Source: a virus. From it: DNA of 18,105 bases. A model generated the notes under the pieces. The model was not told the origin of the DNA. It worked only from the letters and a program-made list of their open reading frames with translations, and did not search any database. Within the stretch, counting starts at the first letter, position 1. Every line of letters starts with the position of its first letter. Below, one piece after another: positions 1 to 18,105 of the stretch. The stretch is from IMG/VR virus record IMGVR_UViG_3300045988_053095. The stretch is one strand, 5' to 3'. Made by a program: the position numbers and the translations under genes.

Positions 1-35
1 CCCTGCTGGATTGGATTTTCGACCCCCTTCCAGTT
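1..35. repeat. Left inverted terminal repeat (35 bp)
   Basis: Bases 1-35 (ccctgctggattggattttcgacccccttccagtt) are the exact reverse complement of 18071-18105. Identity stops at position 36 vs 18070. The end starts with a CCC reiteration. Confidence 0.97.
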
Positions 36-251
36 CCCCCATAACGGATAAACTGAGAACGAAAGCACCACCGCAAACGGTTGTTGCGCGTTCTCGGTAT
101 AGATTTTACCGGCAAAGGACGAAACAGCCGGATGAGTTAAGGCACCTTAACTGCGAACATTGTTAAAAGAATAACAAGCGCGTGTGAATCTGGGCAACAA
201 ACCCGCGCGTGTTATAGTCTTGAACTATATTAAGTTATAGGAATAAACTAT

Positions 252-280
252 TTTACAAATGCTAAAGTACGTGCTATAAT
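252..280 (+). promoter_or_regulatory. Early sigma-A/sigma-70 type promoter with extended -10
   Basis: TTTACA (252-257), 17-nt spacer, TGcTATAAT (272-280). It lies about 60 nt upstream of the first rightward ORF. Confidence 0.7.
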
Positions 281-341
281 AGGCACATAAAGCAAGGGGA
301 AAATAAAGCCAAATACAAATCAAATAAAAGGGGGAACTAAA

Positions 342-626
342 ATGAAAACCGTATCAGCTATTTGTGTATATCACGGAACAACAATTTATAATCTAACTGC
401 GAGTCATAAAGGCGAGTTAATCCAATTAAAAAGAGTTGACATGTCAGATAGCGACGCAAAGTCGTATAACAGTTTTAGAGATATGTATAAAGCAATTTTA
501 ACAATTTTAAAGATGAATGGACTTAAGGTGAAATATAAAACTGAGTTCAATGCAAATTGGTATGATATTCAATTTATAGACGCGCTGAATCCAACGCTTA
601 TAGAAACATTTTCGATTAAAGAATAA
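342..626 (+). CDS. Hypothetical early protein (94 aa)
   Basis: ATG preceded by AAAGGGGGA. First ORF after the early promoter, with AT-rich codon usage. No family recognised. Confidence 0.7.
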   Translation: MKTVSAICVYHGTTIYNLTASHKGELIQLKRVDMSDSDAKSYNSFRDMYKAILTILKMNGLKVKYKTEFNANWYDIQFIDALNPTLIETFSIKE

Positions 627-714
627 CAGCGCGGCTTTCTAAAGGGTTTGAGCCTATCAAGCCCTATTCCATAGGCGCAAGCCTAAAATCAAAAACAAAA
701 GGACTAACAGAAAC

Positions 715-1044
715 ATGAAACAGTATATTAACGGTATCGACGTTAAGCCCACCAATTACAAGAAGTATGCAGCTCTTATCGAATCCTACCGGCACGCCGT
801 CAATACGCGCGGCTATCGCATGGTTGATGATTGCTATAGTAGGCCGAGCGCGGCGAAACAAGAAGCTGAAAACAGAATTCGGAATAAAATGAGGGAGCGC
901 AACGGCTATGGCTACACCGTCGTGAGCTATAATACCATGGTATTTACTTGCGCGTATCTTTTCATGCACCCCGAAGATGGCAACCTCATTCTTTGTTATA
1001 AAACGCCCGCTAACGCATATTATATCGACGCTGCGGGGCTTTAA
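715..1044 (+). CDS. Hypothetical early protein (109 aa)
   Basis: ATG with an AAAGGA element upstream. Co-oriented with the early block. The stop overlaps a GC hairpin at 1034-1050. No family recognised. Confidence 0.65.
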   Translation: MKQYINGIDVKPTNYKKYAALIESYRHAVNTRGYRMVDDCYSRPSAAKQEAENRIRNKMRERNGYGYTVVSYNTMVFTCAYLFMHPEDGNLILCYKTPANAYYIDAAGL

Positions 1045-1170
1045 GCCCCGTCGCGCCGTCGAGGTATTGCCATGTCAAATCCCGATATATTCACTATAGT
1101 ATACCTACTTTTCATTTTGCCTATATCCATAGGCTCAATTATATCATTCATAAGAAAGTGAGATAATACC

Positions 1171-1491
1171 ATGGCTAAAATGAATGTAACGCGCAAATAT
1201 GTGTGCAGCAGTTTTACAAACATTATTTCCGTTCCCTACTGCGCTTTGCAGGACTTATTAAAATATGAGGCTCCATCATGGTTTACTTCCGGAATTTACG
1301 GCTGGAACGCTGATGTATACATGATTGACTTTGAAACGTGCATTGTAACTGGCTATCGTCCGTTCGGCAACATTCGCCCATCCTACGCATTAACCGATGT
1401 ATTTAACCGCACAGCTAAGAAAGTAGATACCCCCGAAAAATGCAATGACCTATTAAACGCTTATGTAAAAGAGGTGTTATCAAATGTTTAA
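1171..1491 (+). CDS. Hypothetical early protein (106 aa)
   Basis: ATG with a GAAAGTGAG element upstream. Its 3' end overlaps the next ORF start by 8 nt, suggesting operon-style coupling. Confidence 0.65.
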   Translation: MAKMNVTRKYVCSSFTNIISVPYCALQDLLKYEAPSWFTSGIYGWNADVYMIDFETCIVTGYRPFGNIRPSYALTDVFNRTAKKVDTPEKCNDLLNAYVKEVLSNV

Positions 1492-1729
1492 TGCAAAAGA
1501 CTACCACGATTTAACGCCAAACTCTCGCCGCGCCATCGCAAAATTAGACGGATTTTACTGCCCCTCTGACTGCAAGCATTGCCCATTTTATAGTGATGAC
1601 GCCATCACCGTAAATTACGAAATTCTCACCTACTCACTCGGGAAATCTGAACCAAAGCAATGCACTCATGAGGGCCATTGTATCATCAACGCAGCTCGCG
1701 TAGAGTTCCCTAATTGGAGGTATGAATAA
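1484..1729 (+). CDS. Small Cys/His-rich early protein (81 aa)
   Basis: AAGAGGTG RBS 7 nt upstream of the ATG. Contains CPSDCKHCP and CTHEGHC clusters, suggesting metal binding (inference). Confidence 0.7.
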   Translation: MFNAKDYHDLTPNSRRAIAKLDGFYCPSDCKHCPFYSDDAITVNYEILTYSLGKSEPKQCTHEGHCIINAARVEFPNWRYE

Positions 1730-1948
1730 ATGACCGGCAGCATTCAAATTGAATACTTAAGCAACGATTCGGTTCGAGTTGGCGGGCATATGGAAGATGT
1801 AACGCTATTTGATAAACAACACCTTGTTATGATTCTTGCTCACGCGCTCGGTCTAACAGCAAGCGATATGCGTTTAGCTTACCTCGCATATTCCGAATTT
1901 CTCGCCGAAATGGATTTATCGAACAATCGTTCCACCCCTGACTTATAG
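1730..1948 (+). CDS. Hypothetical early protein (72 aa)
   Basis: ATG directly abuts the previous stop (TAAATG). GGAGG lies 9 nt upstream. Confidence 0.7.
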   Translation: MTGSIQIEYLSNDSVRVGGHMEDVTLFDKQHLVMILAHALGLTASDMRLAYLAYSEFLAEMDLSNNRSTPDL

Positions 1949-2038
1949 CCCCAACCTATACCCAGCTATTGGAATATCCTATTGGACAACAGCCCCACAA
2001 TCTGCTACAATGAATATATCAAACGGAGGAACATCACG

Positions 2039-2224
2039 ATGAACGAATCCTATTACGACCTCTTTTGCTCCCGTTTCCCGCAAGACAAATTATTCCAGCA
2101 TTACGCTCTCCGCAACTGCTGCCCTCATTGGTTTTTCGATATTCCCTACAACTGCGATTGCATGACCGACACTTGCGCGAAATGTTGGGGCAGAATCCCC
2201 GACTACCCGCCGACCATCAAATAG
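2039..2224 (+). CDS. Small Cys-rich early protein (61 aa)
   Basis: The track ORF starts at TTG 1982, but the in-frame ATG at 2039 has ACGGAGGA 8 nt upstream. Eight Cys residues (CC..C.C....C..C pattern). Confidence 0.6.
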   Translation: MNESYYDLFCSRFPQDKLFQHYALRNCCPHWFFDIPYNCDCMTDTCAKCWGRIPDYPPTIK

Positions 2225-2326
2225 TCCATCTGCAAAGCGGGCTTGCGTGGAAATTTAATTACCGAAAGGAAGTGTTAAAACCTCTCCCTTTTGTGGTAAA
2301 TTCATCCTACCATATCTTCACCTTTT

Positions 2327-2409
2327 CCGTTGACTGTCGAAACAGCCCTGCCCGCTGGGGCTGTCTACCGGAGCCGGTTACTTCGGTACTGATGAGACAA
2401 ACCTCACGG
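2327..2409 (+). ncRNA. Type II hammerhead self-cleaving ribozyme (predicted cleavage after C2365)
   Basis: Core CUGAUGA at 2389-2395 and GAA at 2339-2341. The A15.1-U16.1 pair is A2342-U2364, and the GUC cleavage triplet is 2363-2365. Stem III is 2342-2348/2358-2364 (7 bp). Stem I hairpin is 2366-2372/2382-2388 (7 bp, one G-U). Open stem II is 2335-2338/2396-2399 with the G10.1-C11.1 pair, extended by 2327-2330/2406-2409. Loop I GGUU (2376-2379) is complementary to AACC (2400-2403) in the stem II internal loop. Confidence 0.85.
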
Positions 2410-2435
2410 AAAACACAACCAGAAAGGGAAACAAC

Positions 2436-2720
2436 ATGAAAGCACCCCAGATTACCCGCACCTTTACCACCACCCGCGCAACCATCCTTGGCCTTGACAC
2501 CATCAACGCAGAACCTATGAATAAGGACATTGACCTTGCCGGTCACTTTGAGTCCGAGGACAAGATTATCAAGGCCGCGAAGAAGCTCATTGAGACTGAG
2601 GACTTCAAGGTCTGCAAGCTCGTCCGCTGCGAGGAAATCACCGAGCTGCGCGGAATGAGCGTTCAGAAGTTCCTCGAGAACTCCGAAGTCATCCCCGAGA
2701 AGAACGCCGACAACCAGTAA
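2436..2720 (+). CDS. Abundant early protein, possible phi29 p6-like dsDNA-binding (histone-like) protein (94 aa)
   Basis: AAAGGGAA RBS. Strong C/G-ending codon bias (AAG, GAG, CTC, ATC), unlike the upstream early genes. Position two genes upstream of the TP/DNAP pair matches phi29 order 6-5-(4)-3-2. Loose resemblance to recalled phi29 p6 (ITKTT... and ...VEKFLE... segments). Coding status is likely; the product call is tentative. Confidence 0.55.
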   Translation: MKAPQITRTFTTTRATILGLDTINAEPMNKDIDLAGHFESEDKIIKAAKKLIETEDFKVCKLVRCEEITELRGMSVQKFLENSEVIPEKNADNQ

Positions 2721-2756
2721 CCAACCAACAAATCAAATTAAATGGAGATTATCAAA

Positions 2757-3152
2757 ATGACCGGATATGAAGCTAAAATCGCCTACTCTTCCAAGGAACT
2801 CACCGCTCGCGAGAAAATCAAGCTCAAGGATTTGACCAACGCCGTCCAGCTCGATGAAGCCACTCAGAACGCCGAGTTCGAGGGCGCGGGCAACCTCGTC
2901 ATAACTCCCGACTATTACGCCGAAGTCTCCGTCCACAACGAGAAGTCCGACAGCAAGGATTACGTCAAGTTCGTCGTGGTTGACACCAACGGCACGAAGT
3001 ACGTCACCGGCTCTGAGAGCTTCATCACCGCTTTCAAGGGCATCGTTGACGAGATGGCAGACGCCGGTGAAGAGGGCTACGACATCGAGGTCTACCGCAT
3101 GGAAAGCAAGAACTACAAGGGCAAGAGTTTCATTACCTGTTCCCTCAAGTAA
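2757..3152 (+). CDS. Possible phi29 p5-like single-stranded DNA-binding protein (131 aa)
   Basis: The track start is 2742, but GGAG (2744-2747) sits 9 nt upstream of the in-frame ATG 2757. Same high-expression codon bias. The C-terminal pattern (...DTNGTKYVTGSESF...SKNYKGKSFITCSLK) resembles recalled phi29 p5 (...ADGSLYSAISKT...SSKGNVFFSLQLSL). Synteny supports the call; the product is tentative. Confidence 0.55.
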   Translation: MTGYEAKIAYSSKELTAREKIKLKDLTNAVQLDEATQNAEFEGAGNLVITPDYYAEVSVHNEKSDSKDYVKFVVVDTNGTKYVTGSESFITAFKGIVDEMADAGEEGYDIEVYRMESKNYKGKSFITCSLK

Positions 3153-3200
3153 CACCAACAGCGTAACCATTTGTAACCTTTTAAACTAACTGCTCATTGC

Positions 3201-3233
3201 ACCGGAGAGGGAACTTGTCACTCCCTCTCCGGT
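3201..3233 (+). promoter_or_regulatory. Perfect 12-bp stem-loop without U-tract (possible attenuator or 3' mRNA stabiliser)
   Basis: accggagaggga (3201-3212) pairs perfectly with tccctctccggt (3222-3233), with a 9-nt loop. It is followed by aactaaaa, not a U-run. It lies between the SSB-like and TP-candidate genes. Confidence 0.5.
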
Positions 3234-3252
3234 AACTAAAAGGGGTGATACA

Positions 3253-4290
3253 GTGTCACTTAAATCAGAGTACAATAAAGAGCGAGCGCGAGTAGAAAAA
3301 CTCGCTCGAAAGCTCGAAAAGCAAGGCTACACATTTGGAGATAACATTCTCCCGCCAATCCCGAAGCGCCCGACAGCAGCAAGCATAAAGCGAATAGCAA
3401 AAATCAACGGCGGCTTTCTTCGGGCACGGGCAATCACACAACCAGAGCCAACAGCAGCCCCAAGCATTAAGCGCTCTACCATCTCACAGCCCAAGGTAAA
3501 AGCCCCTAAAATCCCGAAGCCGACAAAAGCCGCGAATGAATACACCGCAAAAGGAAAGCAACAGGCAAGACCGGAATTAGAGAAATTCCGAAAAATAGGC
3601 CAGAATCCTTATATCCCGCACCCGCGCTCGAAGCAATCCGGGCAGCTTGTAAGCCTGAAAAACTTCATGCGGAACGCTGAAAAGCGCGGCTTTCAATTTC
3701 AGCTATCAGCAGAAGAACTATTTCAAAATCCATTCGAGAAGCACTCAGAGCTATACCAATACGCCACCTATGTTGACCCTGAAACCGGAGAGCTTTTAAC
3801 GGGCTTAGAGGGTAGGGCATTAGAAAAACAGAGAGCAGCGCGAAAGGCACAAGACACAAAGAAATACAAGGCTGGAAAAGCGGCAGCACTTGAACTGATT
3901 CCTGAAACACCAGCTACTCCATATCCCACAGAGCAAGAAATAGGCTATAACAATCTAATGTCACTTCTTCGCACCGTTTCAGAGGGTGGTTCAAGCCTAA
4001 TGTTGGGCTTAGACTTACAATATCAAAGAAACGCTACAGGAATGCTAAACGCAGTAGACCGTGCGATTGATACAATAGGGCTAAGAGCTTTTCTTGAAAT
4101 GTTAAAAACGCCAGAGGGCGAATATCTCTTGACTAAGGCATACGACGCTATCTTTGCAAGTGATGATTATGTAGCAAGAGAGTGGGCTACACACCTTGAG
4201 CACTTGCTGCATAAAAACAATCTCATTTCTGACGACGAATTGAAACAGATTCAAGACGAGCGCAATGAAACGTGGGAACTTGTGAAATAA
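3253..4290 (+). CDS. Terminal protein candidate (345 aa)
   Basis: GTG start with AAAGGGG upstream. It sits immediately upstream of the protein-primed DNA polymerase, as in phi29 gene 3. Basic Lys/Pro-rich N-terminal half (KVKAPKIPKPTK). The call is positional because TP sequences are poorly conserved. Confidence 0.6.
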   Translation: MSLKSEYNKERARVEKLARKLEKQGYTFGDNILPPIPKRPTAASIKRIAKINGGFLRARAITQPEPTAAPSIKRSTISQPKVKAPKIPKPTKAANEYTAKGKQQARPELEKFRKIGQNPYIPHPRSKQSGQLVSLKNFMRNAEKRGFQFQLSAEELFQNPFEKHSELYQYATYVDPETGELLTGLEGRALEKQRAARKAQDTKKYKAGKAAALELIPETPATPYPTEQEIGYNNLMSLLRTVSEGGSSLMLGLDLQYQRNATGMLNAVDRAIDTIGLRAFLEMLKTPEGEYLLTKAYDAIFASDDYVAREWATHLEHLLHKNNLISDDELKQIQDERNETWELVK

Positions 4291-4311
4291 CCCGAAAGGG
4301 AATGAAAGAAT

Positions 4312-6261
4312 GTGGCTAAACGCTCATACCGCTACTTTGTAGGGGACTTTGAAACAACCGTCTACAAGGGACAAGTAAATACGGAGGTATGGGCAAGCGC
4401 CGCCGTGGAACTCTTTACCGAAGATGTTAAAATCTTCCATTCCATAGATGAAACCTTTGACTACTTCTGTTCCCTTAAAACGAACATCATTTGTTACTAC
4501 CACAACTTGAAATTCGACGGCTCATTTTGGCTCTCCTACCTCTTAACGGAAAAAGGCTATCAACAGGCACTTGAATACAACAGCGACAGCGAATATGATT
4601 GTCAATGGATTTCAGCATGGAAAATGCCCTCCGGCTCATTCCGCTACTCAATCAGTAACCGAGGGCAATGGTACACCATCACTATTAAAGTAGGTAAGTT
4701 CATAATCGAGTTCCGCGACAGCTTGAAGCTCCTCCCATTCTCTGTCAAGCGAATCGGTAAGAGCTTCAAGACTAAGCACCAGAAACTCGACATGGAATAC
4801 ACCGGCTTACGATATGCTGGCTGCACCATTACACCGGAAGAACAAAAGTACATAGCAAATGACGTTCTCGTCGTAAAAGAAGCTATGGAAATAATGTTCA
4901 CCGAGGGGCATAACAAACTCACGATAGGCTCTTGTTGCCTTGATGAGTTCACCAAGCTGACCGGTAAAGAAGAATACGAATACTACTTCCCAGACGTATA
5001 CGACATACCAATAGACCCAGAACAGCATAAACAAGCAACAGCCGGAGACTGGATTAAGAAAAGTTATCGAGGTGGATGGTGTTATTTAGCAAGAGGAAAA
5101 GAGAACAAAGTGTTTACCAACGGTACAACGGCAGACGTAAACAGTCTATATCCATCCGTTATGTCATCGGAAAGCGGAAACCGTTATCCGGTTGGAAAGC
5201 CACAGTTCTGGATAGGCGAGCCACCGAAGTGGATAGACACCGATGATAAAATCTTTTATTTCATTCGCTTGCGAACACGCTTCAAAATCAAAGACGGTAT
5301 GTTGCCATTCATTCAAATCAAGGGCAATCTTCTCTACCGCGGAAACGAAATGCTTGAAACCTCTGACATTTACGACCCGAAAACAAAGCAATACTACGAC
5401 CACTACTACGACTTAGATGGAAACCTTGTACCAGCAACAGTAGAATTAACTTTAACCATGATGGACTACCACCTACTACTTGAACATTATGACCTATCAG
5501 ACACCGAGTATATAGACGGGTGCTGGTTCGCAACTGAAATCGGTTTATTCGATCGATACATGGAGAAGTACAAGAAGATTAAAATGGAAAGCAAGGGCGC
5601 AATGCGAGAGCTTGCCAAGCTCTTCTTGAATAACCTATATGGTAAGATGGCGTCCAGCACAGACAGCAGCTTCAAGGTTGCTTACGTCAAAGAGGATAAA
5701 TCTCTTGGCTTCATCGAGATAGAAGAACACAACAAGAAAGCGGGCTATATACCCATCGGATCGGCGATAACCTCTTACGCCCGCAACTTCACCATCCGAG
5801 CCGCGCAGCTAAACTATCACGGCAAAGACAAGCGAGGGTTTATCTACGCCGACACCGACAGTATTCATTGCGACATCGCACCGGAAGAGATAAAAGGAAT
5901 CAATGTACATCCAACAAACTTCTGCTGCTGGAAGCTGGAAAGCTGTTGGGACAAGGGAATCTTTGCAAGACAGAAAACGTACATCGAGCATATCACGCAC
6001 GAGGACTGTGAACCAATCGAAGAGCCGTTCTACAACGTGAAGTGCGCCGGTATGCCTGACGCTTGCAAGGAGTTGCTGATTAACAGCATCACACAAACAA
6101 AGACAAGGAAAGAATACACCGAAGAGGAAGAGCAATTCATAAACCAGAAACGAGAACTAACTGATTTCAAAGTGGGCTTGTCAATACCGACAGGCAGACT
6201 AAAACCGAAAAGGATAATGGGCGGCATACTTCTTGTAGATGGGCCTTATGAAATGCGATGA
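4312..6261 (+). CDS. Family B DNA polymerase, protein-primed (phi29 gp2-like, 649 aa)
   Basis: GTG start. Exo I is FVGDFETT, Exo II is HNLKFDG, Exo III is YIANDV. Motif A is DVNSLYPS, motif B is KLFLNNLYGK, motif C is YADTDS, and the KxY motif is QKTYI. Confidence 0.95.
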   Translation: MAKRSYRYFVGDFETTVYKGQVNTEVWASAAVELFTEDVKIFHSIDETFDYFCSLKTNIICYYHNLKFDGSFWLSYLLTEKGYQQALEYNSDSEYDCQWISAWKMPSGSFRYSISNRGQWYTITIKVGKFIIEFRDSLKLLPFSVKRIGKSFKTKHQKLDMEYTGLRYAGCTITPEEQKYIANDVLVVKEAMEIMFTEGHNKLTIGSCCLDEFTKLTGKEEYEYYFPDVYDIPIDPEQHKQATAGDWIKKSYRGGWCYLARGKENKVFTNGTTADVNSLYPSVMSSESGNRYPVGKPQFWIGEPPKWIDTDDKIFYFIRLRTRFKIKDGMLPFIQIKGNLLYRGNEMLETSDIYDPKTKQYYDHYYDLDGNLVPATVELTLTMMDYHLLLEHYDLSDTEYIDGCWFATEIGLFDRYMEKYKKIKMESKGAMRELAKLFLNNLYGKMASSTDSSFKVAYVKEDKSLGFIEIEEHNKKAGYIPIGSAITSYARNFTIRAAQLNYHGKDKRGFIYADTDSIHCDIAPEEIKGINVHPTNFCCWKLESCWDKGIFARQKTYIEHITHEDCEPIEEPFYNVKCAGMPDACKELLINSITQTKTRKEYTEEEEQFINQKRELTDFKVGLSIPTGRLKPKRIMGGILLVDGPYEMR

Positions 6262-6473
6262 GAAGAAAAAGAATTACACTAAATGACACGGTAGACCAAC
6301 TGCTGAAAGAGGGGTTCAGCGACGTGTTAGTTGACGCTTGTGGTTTGTGGGTAAGACAACCTGATAACGTAAAAGCCAGATACGGAAAACTGTTTGTCAG
6401 GTATGTTGACCGCACATACGATGACCACACCGCTTTTGTAGAAGTAGAGTACCCAGCATTGTGGTTTTTATAA
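6258..6473 (+). CDS. Hypothetical protein (71 aa), translationally coupled to DNAP
   Basis: ATGA start/stop overlap with the polymerase gene. No family recognised. Confidence 0.6.
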   Translation: MRRKRITLNDTVDQLLKEGFSDVLVDACGLWVRQPDNVKARYGKLFVRYVDRTYDDHTAFVEVEYPALWFL

Positions 6474-6483
6474 GGAGAAAGCT

Positions 6484-6630
6484 ATGGTTATTTTATTACT
6501 CACAGCAACGTGCTGCTTGATGTGTGTCGCTCTTATTGTCCTCGCGTTCTGGCTGAATCACTTGGACAATAAACTCGACGAGCTGCATGAAGAAGTAACA
6601 GAAAAGCGCGAAAGGTGGGACTTCCGATGA
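6484..6630 (+). CDS. Small single-pass membrane protein (48 aa), absent from the ORF track
   Basis: AAGGAG RBS 6 nt upstream of ATG 6484. Sequence is MVILLLTATCCLMCVALIVLAFWL followed by a charged helical tail. Confidence 0.55.
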   Translation: MVILLLTATCCLMCVALIVLAFWLNHLDNKLDELHEEVTEKRERWDFR

Positions 6631-6725
6631 GCGCTGAATTGATTCTCTGGCTCTGGTCAGGTGTTGTAGTAGCGATTGCCTACTATATGTTATTTCATAC
6701 AGGTGGTGATGGATTAGATGGCTAA
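6627..6725 (+). CDS. Possible mini membrane peptide (32 aa), absent from the ORF track
   Basis: ATGA overlap with the previous ORF stop. Hydrophobic core LILWLWSGVVVAIAYYMLF. Its stop overlaps the next start. Very short, so uncertain. Confidence 0.4.
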   Translation: MSAELILWLWSGVVVAIAYYMLFHTGGDGLDG

Positions 6726-6918
6726 CTATGAAAGAATGTGGAATAGCTTAAAGCGAGAGCTTAAACAGCTGGAAGAGCATTACAGTGATATGCGCTTGAA
6801 CTACGCAAGGAAAGGTCAGCCTACTCTTGCTACGCATTTCAAAGAGCGTGGAGACGGAGTAGCAGAAGCAATCATGTATATGGATTTAGCGGAGGATGAC
6901 GAGCATGGACAAGAGTAA
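6718..6918 (+). CDS. Hypothetical acidic helical protein (66 aa)
   Basis: GGTGGTGATGGA purine-rich RBS. Chained with its neighbours by overlaps. Confidence 0.6.
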   Translation: MANYERMWNSLKRELKQLEEHYSDMRLNYARKGQPTLATHFKERGDGVAEAIMYMDLAEDDEHGQE

Positions 6919-7093
6919 CTTGTATATTGGTGAATCGTGCGGAACGTGCGCACATAGCGAGGTATGTATTCACCGGATTAAAGGTAACAATATGGAAGCA
7001 ACAGGTATAGCGAATGGGGCTGCTCAGGAGTTGCCTGAGCCGTTCAAGATTAAATTATTCTGCTCGAAATACAAAAGCCGAAGTCTAAACTAA
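6905..7093 (+). CDS. Small Cys-containing protein (62 aa)
   Basis: The track start 6896 abuts GGAGG with no spacing. The in-frame ATG 6905 is 9 nt from GGAGG. CGTC...C motif. Last gene of the rightward early block. Confidence 0.55.
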   Translation: MDKSNLYIGESCGTCAHSEVCIHRIKGNNMEATGIANGAAQELPEPFKIKLFCSKYKSRSLN

Positions 7094-7099
7094 AATTTA

Positions 7100-7131
7100 G
7101 TGCGGGATAGAGACGAATCCCTATCCCGCAC
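7100..7131. terminator. Bidirectional stem-loop terminator between convergent blocks
   Basis: gtgcgggatag (7100-7110) pairs with ctatcccgcac (7121-7131). On the minus strand it is followed by an A/T-rich uaaauuuua tail; on the plus strand by auuguauc. Confidence 0.7.
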
Positions 7132-7247
7132 ATTGTATCAACAACAGATGCACACCGAAAGCGGTCAGCGAAACCGATACATTTTCAGGCGGTACATTCA
7201 AACCGTGCTACCCTGAAATGGCGGTCGGTGAAACAACTGATGATACC
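7132..7247 (-). other. Structured non-coding segment between the packaging ATPase stop and the terminator (candidate ncRNA or structured 3' UTR)
   Basis: Four nested complementary pairs: 7135-7140/7241-7246, 7153-7157/7226-7230, 7180-7189/7212-7220 (one bulge) and 7190-7193/7202-7205. Also a direct repeat, gcggtc-nnn-gaaac, at 7161 and 7221. No credible ORF. Confidence 0.35.
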
Positions 7248-8282
7248 TTAATAAGATAAACTTTTGAGAACCGCTTCTTTGCACCGCAGGTCTTTGAAGC
7301 GGAAGCATCCACGCTCGAAGTAGTAACGGAGATTGAATAGGAACAAATCATTCCTCTTGAGCATGACATAATTCAGCTCGTGGTCGTCCGTCGTGACGGT
7401 GATTTTCAGCGGGAATGTTTCATCCGCTCTATCGTCACAATAGATAACACCAGCTTCCGCGAACTCGCGAATACCATACGTCTGGCCGTTATACTTCAAC
7501 GTAGCCATATATCGGCCAACACCTTGCGGACGGTCAACGAACGCCTTATTGTCGTTCAGATACACGCTTTCCGAAGAGTAAGCCACATAACTATTCCGAG
7601 CGAACGCCTTATTGAAGCCGCTGCTCTTCTGCGCGTCAGCGGCGCTCTCTACAAAGCCCTGTTCCAGAACGAAACCATCTCCACGCAGGAAGCGTGTTTC
7701 ATCCGTAAGGCGAGAGCTGATACCCAGCTCCACATAGTAGGGGTTGATAATGCTGACAGGGTTCGAGAGCATATAGACCGGAAGATAACGGTTCTGTTCG
7801 CCTTGTCCACGGGCCATAGAGGTATGAACGGAAATGAACTTCTTGATTTCGTTCGGGCAATAGGTATTGCTTTCACTCTGGAACTCGTCGAAGATAAGGC
7901 GCTTAACGTCAGAGAAGAAATGAGAGTTCTTCTTAACTTGGTCTGCGCTGTTGATACTCACGGCATAACCGCACGGCTCACCGTTCAGATAAAGCTCGTG
8001 ATAGATTCCCTTGGCTCTCTTCTTGGAAGTCATGGTGTAACCGTTGAAGAACAGCTCGCCAATGTCCTTGAAGAACTTCTCCGCGCAATCATCCAGCTCA
8101 TAGTTGTAACGATAAAGCAGGCCAAACTTCTCTCGCTTATCGAGGAAGCGGTTGACGACAAGTCTACCGAAGTAAGTAGTCTTACCACCGGTACGGTTGG
8201 TCGTACACATATAAATCTCAGGGCGATTGCCGTTAATGTCGGTCAAGCTCAGCAGCTTAGTTCCGTCGTAGTAGTTGCCCAT
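7248..8282 (-). CDS. DNA encapsidation (packaging) ATPase, phi29 gp16-like (344 aa)
   Basis: Walker A is TNRTGGKTT and Walker B is RLIFDEF. Size is close to phi29 gp16. TAATG coupling to the upstream ORF. Confidence 0.9.
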   Translation of the reverse strand: MGNYYDGTKLLSLTDINGNRPEIYMCTTNRTGGKTTYFGRLVVNRFLDKREKFGLLYRYNYELDDCAEKFFKDIGELFFNGYTMTSKKRAKGIYHELYLNGEPCGYAVSINSADQVKKNSHFFSDVKRLIFDEFQSESNTYCPNEIKKFISVHTSMARGQGEQNRYLPVYMLSNPVSIINPYYVELGISSRLTDETRFLRGDGFVLEQGFVESAADAQKSSGFNKAFARNSYVAYSSESVYLNDNKAFVDRPQGVGRYMATLKYNGQTYGIREFAEAGVIYCDDRADETFPLKITVTTDDHELNYVMLKRNDLFLFNLRYYFERGCFRFKDLRCKEAVLKSLSY

Positions 8283-8898: not shown

Positions 8899-8947
8899 GA
8901 TTGCACCTCAAATGAAATAAAGTTAAAGGCATAATCTATCTAATCAT

Positions 8948-8976
8948 ATTATAAATGCAACTTGACATTTTGTCAA
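8948..8976 (-). promoter_or_regulatory. Leftward consensus promoter (drives the membrane-protein/ATPase block)
   Basis: On the minus strand: TTGACA (complement of 8971-8976), 17-nt spacer, TATAAT (complement of 8948-8953). Confidence 0.75.
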
Positions 8977-8990
8977 GTACATATTATAAT
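8962..8990 (+). promoter_or_regulatory. Rightward consensus promoter (drives the structural gene block)
   Basis: TTGACA (8962-8967), 17-nt spacer, TATAAT (8985-8990). It lies 63 nt upstream of the scaffold gene ATG. Confidence 0.75.
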
Positions 8991-9052
8991 ATGTATAAAG
9001 GGTAAGGAAATTTGCCTTTACTTTATAATTTCAGAACGAAAGGAGTGACACG

Positions 9053-18028: not shown

Positions 18029-18057
18029 CTGGAGAGGGTTATTCCCTCTCCAGTTTT
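18029..18057 (+). terminator. Rho-independent terminator of the late operon
   Basis: ctggagaggg (18029-18038) pairs with ccctctccag (18044-18053), with a 5-nt loop, followed by TTTT (18054-18057). Confidence 0.8.
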
Positions 18058-18070
18058 ACTGCTACGGTTA

Positions 18071-18105
18071 AACTGGAAGGGGGTCGAAAATCCAATCCAG
18101 CAGGG
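18071..18105. repeat. Right inverted terminal repeat (35 bp)
   Basis: Exact reverse complement of 1-35. Confidence 0.97.

Follow-up and report, generated by a model that had tools for sequence, protein, structure and literature searches.

The window analyzed here, IMG/VR virus record IMGVR_UViG_3300045988_053095 taken at its full length of 18,105 nucleotides (nt), is a complete 18.1-kb phi29-like podophage genome. Our results make it very probable that positions 2335–2406, together with an outer helix that closes them, encode an active type II hammerhead ribozyme in the plus-strand early transcript of this gut phage, ahead of its replication genes. Related phages carry a tRNA-like element at the same site instead. 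This site-specific alternation of ribozyme and tRNA-like element, with a hairpin at the predicted new 5′ end in both cases, is what goes beyond previous knowledge.

A type II hammerhead ribozyme is predicted upstream of the replication module

Rfam cmscan of the whole window (both strands, 4227 families) gave a single match above its gathering score. This match, to RF02276 (Hammerhead_II) at 2335–2406 on the plus strand, scored 41.0 bits against a gathering score of 37 (E=1.8e-5) and covered model positions 1–66 of 66. It answers the covariance-model check named in an earlier reading of the window, made from the sequence only (the sequence-only reading), which had placed a complete type II hammerhead here. 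A permissive Rfam scan added only two noise matches (a small nucleolar RNA and a microRNA; E 0.2–0.8), and the scans detected no second ribozyme, no tRNA, and no phi29-type or other packaging RNA (pRNA) anywhere in the window. The elements of the ribozyme are as follows.

2335–2406, plus strand: type II hammerhead ribozyme, the extent of the RF02276 match
2323–2330, plus strand: 5′ strand of the outer helix, which extends stem II past an internal loop; pairs with 2406–2413 in the minimum free energy (MFE) and centroid folds
2335–2338, plus strand: 5′ strand of stem II (UGUC; C2338 is C11.1), paired with 2396–2399
2339–2341, plus strand: core G12 A13 A14 (GAA), invariant across clade members
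2342–2364, plus strand: stem III hairpin, 2342–2349 paired with 2357–2364 around loop 2350–2356
2363–2365, plus strand: GUC triplet (C2365 is H17), with predicted cleavage 3′ of C2365 from its position in the Rfam alignment
2366–2388, plus strand: stem I hairpin, 2366–2373 paired with 2381–2388
2376–2379, plus strand: loop I GGUU, 5′ strand of the pseudoknot, complementary to AACC at 2400–2403
2389–2395, plus strand: core CUGAUGA (C3 U4 G5 A6 U7 G8 A9), CUGAYGA in relatives
2396–2399, plus strand: 3′ strand of stem II (GACA; G2396 is G10.1); the G2396–C2338 pair borders the core
2400–2403, plus strand: AACC, 3′ strand of the pseudoknot, directly 3′ of stem II, pairing with the loop I GGUU
2406–2413, plus strand: 3′ strand of the outer helix, pairing with 2323–2330

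Reading the sequence verified each coordinate that the sequence-only reading had assigned to the invariant elements, and both the predicted fold and the covariation described below agree with that assignment. The stem lengths needed correction. With their closing pairs, stems I and III are 8 base pairs (bp) long rather than 7: stem III includes the A15.1–U16.1 pair (A2342–U2364) and a U2349–G2357 wobble, and stem I consists of 2366–2372 with 2382–2388 plus G2373–C2381. The pairing proposed outside stem II also stood, although the MFE fold extends it from 4 bp to 8 bp (2323–2330/2406–2413).

The unconstrained MFE fold of 2320–2415 is the same three-way junction (−32.6 kcal/mol, z=−2.7 compared to shuffles). 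Sequence order, the Rfam structure line, and the MFE fold all give the type II topology, in which loops close stems I and III and stem II is open. The match to RF02276 thus combines a score above the gathering threshold with an invariant core, three covarying helices, type II topology, and a tertiary contact between stems I and II.

Compensatory changes maintain the fold within the clade

IMG/VR contains six contigs whose polymerase is 98% identical to that of the window, and five of the six (L006, L007, L009, L010, and L011) cover the spacer that holds the ribozyme. The hammerhead was present in all five, as well as in six human-gut metagenome contigs of the same clade. Pairs were counted in an alignment of the window with its five relatives (alignment A1, six sequences), using slid partners and 500 shuffles as controls; the six additional contigs contributed no new stem variants, and the alignment was not extended with them. 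Rfam scored two of the five relatives above the gathering threshold (L006, 39.4 bits; L007, 38.9 bits).

The core, loop I, and the 3′ tail were invariant in this alignment, except at the free core position 7, which is U or C. Overall, 97.5% of cells were paired, compared to 33–43% for slid partners, and eight pairs had changed on both sides. None of the 500 shuffles reached the observed covariation score or paired fraction. Stems I and III were paired 100%. Four of the 8 pairs in stem III had changed on both sides (variants CAGCCC/GGGCUG, CAAGGC/GCCUUG, and CCAGUC/GGCUGG), as had four of the 7 pairs counted in stem I (UACCGGA/UUCGGUA, UAUUGGA/UCCAAUA, UACUGGA/UCCAGUA, and UACCAGA/UCUGGUA). Stem II (4 bp) was paired in 95.8% of cells, with one G–C to G–U change.

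The same stretch contains two open reading frames (ORFs), one on the plus strand (2065–2439) and one on the minus strand (2307–2546), both of which the sequence-only reading had called spurious. Coding by either ORF, a chance resemblance, or an inactive relic would be another account of the hammerhead signal, one that could draw on the modest excess of the Rfam score over its threshold, on the presence of both ORFs in the window, and on the persistence of the minus-strand ORF in relatives. We rejected both ORFs as coding. Neither has a ribosome binding site (RBS). The earlier judgment was borne out for the plus-strand ORF, which is truncated or absent in L006, L007, and L011. The minus-strand ORF does persist, but it lies antisense to the conserved gene at 2436–2720, and its changes follow RNA pairing rather than codons: each arm of stem III has changed at four of its six positions, as expected for pairing in RNA but not for conserved codons. 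Chance or decay, for their part, would have to produce the E value of the window match, eight compensatory pairs, and a covariation score and paired fraction matched by no shuffle. We consider this whole group of explanations extremely improbable. Because the compensatory changes occur alongside indels in the spacer 5′ of the ribozyme and a plus-strand ORF that is broken in three relatives, the target of selection is the folded RNA rather than a reading frame. In annotation, a ribozyme label should replace the ORFs in the 211-nt gap between the flanking genes.

The pseudoknot covaries across the wider hammerhead family

Type II hammerheads were defined by Perreault et al. (2011; PMC3088659), who found in most of them a pseudoknot in which loop I forms at least 4 pairs with the sequence directly 3′ of stem II, and whose mutations of the pseudoknot showed its importance for fast cleavage. 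The window pseudoknot (GGUU/AACC) sits at this family contact position and is invariant inside the clade. For a family-level test, we scanned IMG/VR with a pattern derived from the core flanks and recovered 37 contigs of 14–87 kb, mostly not phi29-like. At least 4 contiguous Watson-Crick pairs could form at the pseudoknot position in 34 of 35 distinct loop/tail combinations, while only 30% of mismatched loop/tail partners reached at least 4 contiguous pairs. The paired sequences varied and included UGGC/GCCA, AAUCU/AGAUU, UAUU/AAUA, UGACC/GGUCA, UUGGUCU/AGACCAA, and UGUC/GACA, among others. Thus, the sequence-only reading was correct about the pseudoknot contact of type II hammerheads: the same contact is described and tested in PMC3088659, and it covaries family-wide.

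Together, the covariance-model score above threshold, the compensatory changes in six sequences, and the family-wide covariation of the pseudoknot support the assignment of 2335–2406, from its sequence, as a genuine type II hammerhead with a pseudoknot between loop I and the tail.

The position of such hammerheads relative to genes was examined as well. An RBS and start codon were located 47–92 nt 3′ of the cleavage site in 30 of 41 distinct loci of this hammerhead subtype (median 67), and the distance from the predicted cleavage site to the ATG in the window is 70 nt. In environmental examples, the ribozyme directly abuts the RBS. Four larger IMG/VR phage contigs (L038, L045, L058, and L062) contain two near-identical type II hammerheads 350–1170 nt apart; the two lie on the same strand with short gene blocks between them, a clustered arrangement like that in PMC3088659.

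Related phages carry a tRNA-like element at the same site

No hammerhead or other Rfam ribozyme was detected at gathering thresholds in the distant relatives (polymerase 30–69% identical) among L001–L024, and our own hammerhead descriptor found none in the distant relatives among L001–L026. An HDV-like match in L012 was weak (E=2) and was dismissed. A scan centered on the first gene of the replication module yielded 80 further loci from phages of ~16–17 kb. In ~70 related gut phages that lack the hammerhead, a tRNA-like element, identified with our own shuffle-controlled descriptor, occupies the place homologous to window positions 2225–2435. No such element was found in the window itself. Examples are listed below.

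L002 (Clostridium phage CS229P2, OP172773), ~1916–1969: tRNA-like element
L001, 2146–2238: tRNA-like element
L012, 2158–2204: tRNA-like element
~70 of L063–L142: tRNA-like element

The leaders that contain these elements are 170–250 nt long and carry a T-arm-like hairpin (5 bp, UUCRANY loop) ~85–95 nt before the start codon. The 7 nt directly 3′ of the hairpin pair with a strand 26–94 nt upstream. For 61 of 69 T-arm-like hairpins, this acceptor partner was perfect (7/7), compared to a mean chance of 1.3% in shuffled upstream sequence. A condensed alignment of 30 distinct examples was 99.4% paired, with 11 of 12 pairs changed on both sides; pairing was the selection criterion for this alignment, and the shuffle control on 7/7 partners is the fairer test. 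Acceptor positions showed up to six pair types, with the loop-closing G–C pair and the UUC invariant. The element has a variable insert of 16–100 nt and, in several examples, a D-arm-like hairpin bearing GG. Most leaders missed by the descriptor pattern contain variants of the same element.

We asked how far the resemblance to tRNA extends. The elements have an acceptor stem and T arm only, with no anticodon arm recognized by tRNA finders; ARAGORN found no tRNA in 25 loci, and Rfam gave no tRNA or transfer-messenger RNA match even at E≤5. Past the acceptor strand, the next two nucleotides read AC, UC, AU, or UU, and CCA never occurs there. By these features of sequence, the leader elements of the relatives are tRNA-like elements and not tRNAs. 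In 51 of 51 distinct leaders, a cut at the discriminator would leave RNA that opens with a covarying hairpin of 5–9 bp, preceded by 0–2 unpaired nt.

L001 also contains a second, minimal tRNA-like element (TGGTAGG / ATAGG-TTCAAAC-CCTAT / CCTGCCA) at 1029–1073, farther upstream in its early region. This second copy hints that tRNA-like elements may punctuate the early transcript at multiple places.

By analogy, the two elements suggest a common job, cutting the mRNA at the site they share. A further step, which we hold tentatively and at somewhat less than even odds, is that the replication mRNA requires a hairpin-capped 5′ end and that the hammerhead and the tRNA-like element are unrelated, interchangeable cutters at one site. 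Most ~16–18 kb members would then use the tRNA-like element, presumably through host RNase P and RNase Z, and the higher-GC clade would use the hammerhead. GC content is 46.5% in the hammerhead clade and 33–37% in the relatives with tRNA-like elements, a contrast that suggests different host groups.

An active ribozyme could also be a neutral or selfish passenger, a short cassette that spreads horizontally, settles in a tolerant spacer, and is useless to the phage. At least 37 unrelated IMG/VR contigs (14–87 kb), and also marine and soil metagenomes, contain near-identical cores and flanks, which points to horizontal spread, and among the sampled phi29-like phages only one narrow clade has the hammerhead. 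However, the hammerhead does not lie at a random spot but occupies the exact site of the other structured element of the relatives, and its spacing to the start codon is tight across hammerhead loci. Moreover, since the hammerhead is kept, with compensatory changes, in all eleven clade sequences covering the region, purifying selection appears to act on the fold. We therefore regard a passenger as unlikely.

The ribozyme lies in the early region of a phi29-like genome

The phi29-like context noted in the sequence-only reading was confirmed. The genome ends in terminal inverted repeats (1–55 and 18051–18105; 55 nt, 85% complementary, with the outermost ~35 nt nearly perfect), which mark the genome as linear and complete, in line with protein-primed replication. 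Its small linear form, these repeats, a family B polymerase, a gp16-type ATPase, and connector, collar, and tail knob proteins all place it among the phi29-like phages. The replication and packaging genes that bear on the analysis are:

2436–2720, plus strand: first gene of the replication module, 94 amino acids (aa), weakly p6-like, conserved before the SSB, terminal-protein, and polymerase genes in >90 relatives
2742–3152, plus strand: phi29-type SSB (phrog_6243; PF17427, 24.4 bits against a cut-off of 25)
3253–4290, plus strand: terminal-protein candidate, from its position between SSB and polymerase as in phi29
4312–6261, plus strand: protein-primed family B DNA polymerase (phrog_1907, E=4e-130; PF03175)
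7248–8282, minus strand: gp16-type packaging ATPase (PF05894), the only clear minus-strand gene

The window also encodes a major head protein, tail knob, upper collar/portal, lower collar, and endolysin, and further PHROG matches among its proteins are phrog_2038, phrog_3225, phrog_5472, and phrog_2248. Nucleotide searches of GenBank phages (megablast with the whole window, blastn with the leader) returned no matches, and relatives were found at the protein level. The nearest named phages are Clostridium phages CS229P1-3 (host Clostridium_Q symbiosum), with 61% aa identity in the polymerase; identity is 65% to human faecal contigs and 34–35% to phi29, Nf, and B103.

The order of p6-like gene, SSB, terminal-protein candidate, and polymerase equals that of phi29 genes 6-5-3-2, and in phi29 the promoter A2c sits just before gene 6. 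The p6-like label that the sequence-only reading gave to the gene at 2436 is plausible but weakly supported by sequence comparison: hhalign aligned it to phi29 p6 with 54% probability (E=1.3e-4, 87 colinear columns), BLASTP matched the C-terminal 35 aa (E=2e-4), and the gene has no Pfam family.

The terminal-protein candidate, which has no Pfam or PHROG family match, is only ~30% identical in aa sequence to its counterparts in L006, L007, L009, and L010 despite the 98% identical polymerase, and 91% identical to that of L011. From the sequences, this looks like mosaic gene replacement within one clade. After the packaging ATPase gene lies a strong terminator-like hairpin with a 14-bp stem (7100–7131, minus strand). 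A near-palindrome at 8945–8993 (CATATTATAAATGCAACTTGACA / TGTCAAGTACATATTATAATATG) has TTGACA and TATAAT-like boxes in both directions and separates the leftward block containing the packaging ATPase from the rightward structural genes. This region probably contains divergent promoters.

The plus strand carries every gene between 342 and 7093, and a search of 1–7300 revealed no terminator-like site on this strand. The features around the ribozyme are:

1983–2011, plus strand: sigma-70-like promoter candidate upstream of the Cys-rich ORF (TGGACA-17-TACAAT with a TG extension; 10/12 consensus matches)
2039–2224, plus strand: Cys-rich ORF of 61 aa, the cistron 5′ of the ribozyme, with a translation conserved in all clade members
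2292–2302, plus strand: possible extended −10 element, TGTGGTAAATT in the window, ~20 nt upstream of the ribozyme domain; speculative
2423–2429, plus strand: RBS AAAGGGA of the downstream gene, homologous to AGAAAGGAG in relatives

The consensus scan gave 252–280 and 1983–2011 as the best promoter-like sites of the early region, and the latter is conserved in L007, L009, L010, and L011. It called no promoter between the Cys-rich ORF and the ribozyme, where the 2292–2302 element has a poor −35; this element is conserved in the clade alignment as TGTGATAAT or TGTGGTAAAT. Whichever promoter is used, transcription has to pass through the ribozyme before it reaches the replication module. The Cys-rich protein has no Pfam or PHROG family. 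Its pattern is CCPHWFFDIP...C.C....C..CW, and L006 has two tandem copies (1520–1775 and 1769 onward).

Predicted consequences of cleavage

We propose the following model. The RNA would fold into the three-way junction, with hairpins at stem III (2342–2364) and stem I (2366–2388) and an open stem II (2335–2338/2396–2399), and the pseudoknot between loop I and the tail (2376–2379 with 2400–2403) would keep stems I and II parallel. The core (CUGAUGA at 2389–2395 and GAA at 2339–2341) would then catalyze transesterification 3′ of C2365. From established hammerhead chemistry, C2365 should be left with a 2′,3′-cyclic phosphate and U2366 with a 5′-OH. Each transcript that crosses the site, by read-through from 1983–2011 and possibly from 2292–2302, would be cut in two. 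Because of the type II topology, the stem III hairpin would form the 3′ end of the upstream RNA, which carries the Cys-rich ORF at 2039–2224. The downstream RNA would start at U2366, inside stem I and 70 nt ahead of the ATG that opens the p6-like/SSB/terminal protein/polymerase module. In the predicted fold of the 3′ product, there are 0 unpaired 5′ nucleotides ahead of the stem I hairpin.

As to purpose, we infer that cleavage would give the replication mRNA a defined, hairpin-capped 5′ end, uncoupled from upstream RNA, and would close the Cys-ORF RNA with a 3′ hairpin in a region that has no predicted intrinsic terminator. In bacteria, 5′-terminal hairpins are known RNA stabilizers, and a stabilizing role may apply here as well. 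In the relatives, the tRNA-like element, which has the shape of an RNase P/RNase Z substrate, and the hairpin that follows would yield the same type of 5′ end by a host-dependent route. The sequence-only reading had spoken of programmed cleavage of the early polycistronic mRNA; by analogy with other phage hammerheads, this is a reasonable inference, and it matches the proposal that phage hammerheads cut long phage transcripts (PMC3088659).

The outer helix raises the alternative that cleavage is conditional, with the helix (2323–2330/2406–2413) and the pseudoknot (2376–2379/2400–2403) as alternative states that tune expression of the replication genes, and with the cut fraction depending on some factor, on Mg2+ concentration, or on transcriptional timing. 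The helix is found in both the MFE and centroid folds, is conserved in the clade, and is no general feature of other type II hammerheads; regulated cleavage has also been raised for phage hammerheads (PMC3088659). On the other hand, there is no aptamer-like domain, and the two pairings share no nucleotides. The helix is kept across the clade with almost no informative variation: its sole change is one-sided (U–G to U–A), so comparative support is weak. We judge conditional cleavage to be quite improbable.

Several points weigh against an active ribozyme that protects the replication mRNA. The RF02276 score exceeds the gathering threshold by 4 bits only, and L009, L010, and L011 fall below that threshold, their cores intact nonetheless. 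The clade alignment consists of six fairly close sequences, within which the pseudoknot and core cannot covary. Activity is predicted from sequence, and the promoter assignments are consensus matches only. The outer helix flanks the pseudoknot strand and, in the folding models, might compete with the tertiary contact or retain the cleaved products. Finally, the 5′-OH product of the Bacillus subtilis glmS ribozyme is a target of RNase J1. Since 5′-OH ends can be RNase J1 targets, cleavage could destabilize the downstream RNA instead.

Relation to known systems and significance

Pseudoknotted type II hammerheads have been known since 2011, as have their frequent occurrence between the genes of phages and prophages and the proposal that they cut long phage transcripts (PMC3088659). 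The window ribozyme shares with those described there its core, its topology, a short stem II closed by G10.1–C11.1, and a 4-bp pseudoknot between loop I and the tail. It shares as well a position in a phage intergenic region within a block of co-oriented genes and the same proposed role, the processing of long phage transcripts to gene-length or operon-length mRNAs. It differs in its setting, a ~18-kb protein-primed phi29-like podophage; in being a single copy, unlike the clustered pairs or triples of the prophages; in the extra 8-bp closing helix outside stem II; and in its pseudoknot sequence, GGUU/AACC rather than the commoner family version UGGC/GCCA. Our literature search found no report of a natural hammerhead, or of a tRNA-like leader, in a phi29-like phage.

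The closest parallel in placement is a hammerhead variant of haloviruses HF1/HF2, which stands 13 nt ahead of the start codon of an early helicase gene, and for which a 5′ end was mapped ≤3 nt from the cleavage site (PMC3088659). As in the window, the genome is the linear double-stranded DNA of a lytic virus, and the hammerhead precedes the first gene of an early polycistronic transcript with replication functions, as part of its 5′ leader. In the window, ~30 nt separate the end of the ribozyme match (2406) from the ATG, compared to 13 nt in HF1/HF2. HF1/HF2 are archaeal, their hammerhead is another variant, and their 5′ end is mapped, whereas that of the window is predicted from sequence.

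RiboJ, a synthetic ribozyme insulator, is an engineered type III hammerhead of plant satellite RNA origin with an added hairpin, and it makes downstream expression independent of context. In both RiboJ and the window, a hammerhead stands between a promoter or upstream RNA and an RBS, and a 5′ hairpin is left (in the window, by prediction) after removal of variable 5′ sequence. The window differs from RiboJ in that its arrangement arose naturally and that stem I itself provides the 5′ hairpin.

For the relatives' element, mascRNA and the mitochondrial tRNA punctuation model offer precedents as tRNA-like processing signals. So do plant mitochondrial t-elements, which are tRNA-like mRNA end signals (PMC1920247). 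Like the relatives' element, t-elements have an acceptor stem on a T arm, next to an mRNA end that needs definition. Systems of the t-element and mascRNA type use host RNase P and RNase Z, while the window is predicted to use a self-cleaving RNA. The relatives' elements are absent from Rfam, and their processing by RNase P/Z is presumed by analogy.

The role of hundreds of bacterial and phage hammerheads is largely unsettled, and the processing of phage transcripts could only be suggested in PMC3088659. The phage studied here presents a clean case: a single ribozyme, at a fixed distance before a well-understood replication module, in a tiny genome. Relatives with the tRNA-like element and hairpin at the same site are partly cultured (Clostridium phages CS229P1-3), and the hypothesis of a defined, hairpin-protected 5′ end could be tested by exchanging the ribozyme and the tRNA-like element or by disabling them. 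Our analysis also flags a previously undescribed, strongly covarying family of tRNA-like elements in gut phages. If the interchange is real, a processing signal that depends on the host and one that is self-contained have replaced each other naturally without being homologous, and this would provide a testable handle on the purpose of phage hammerheads.

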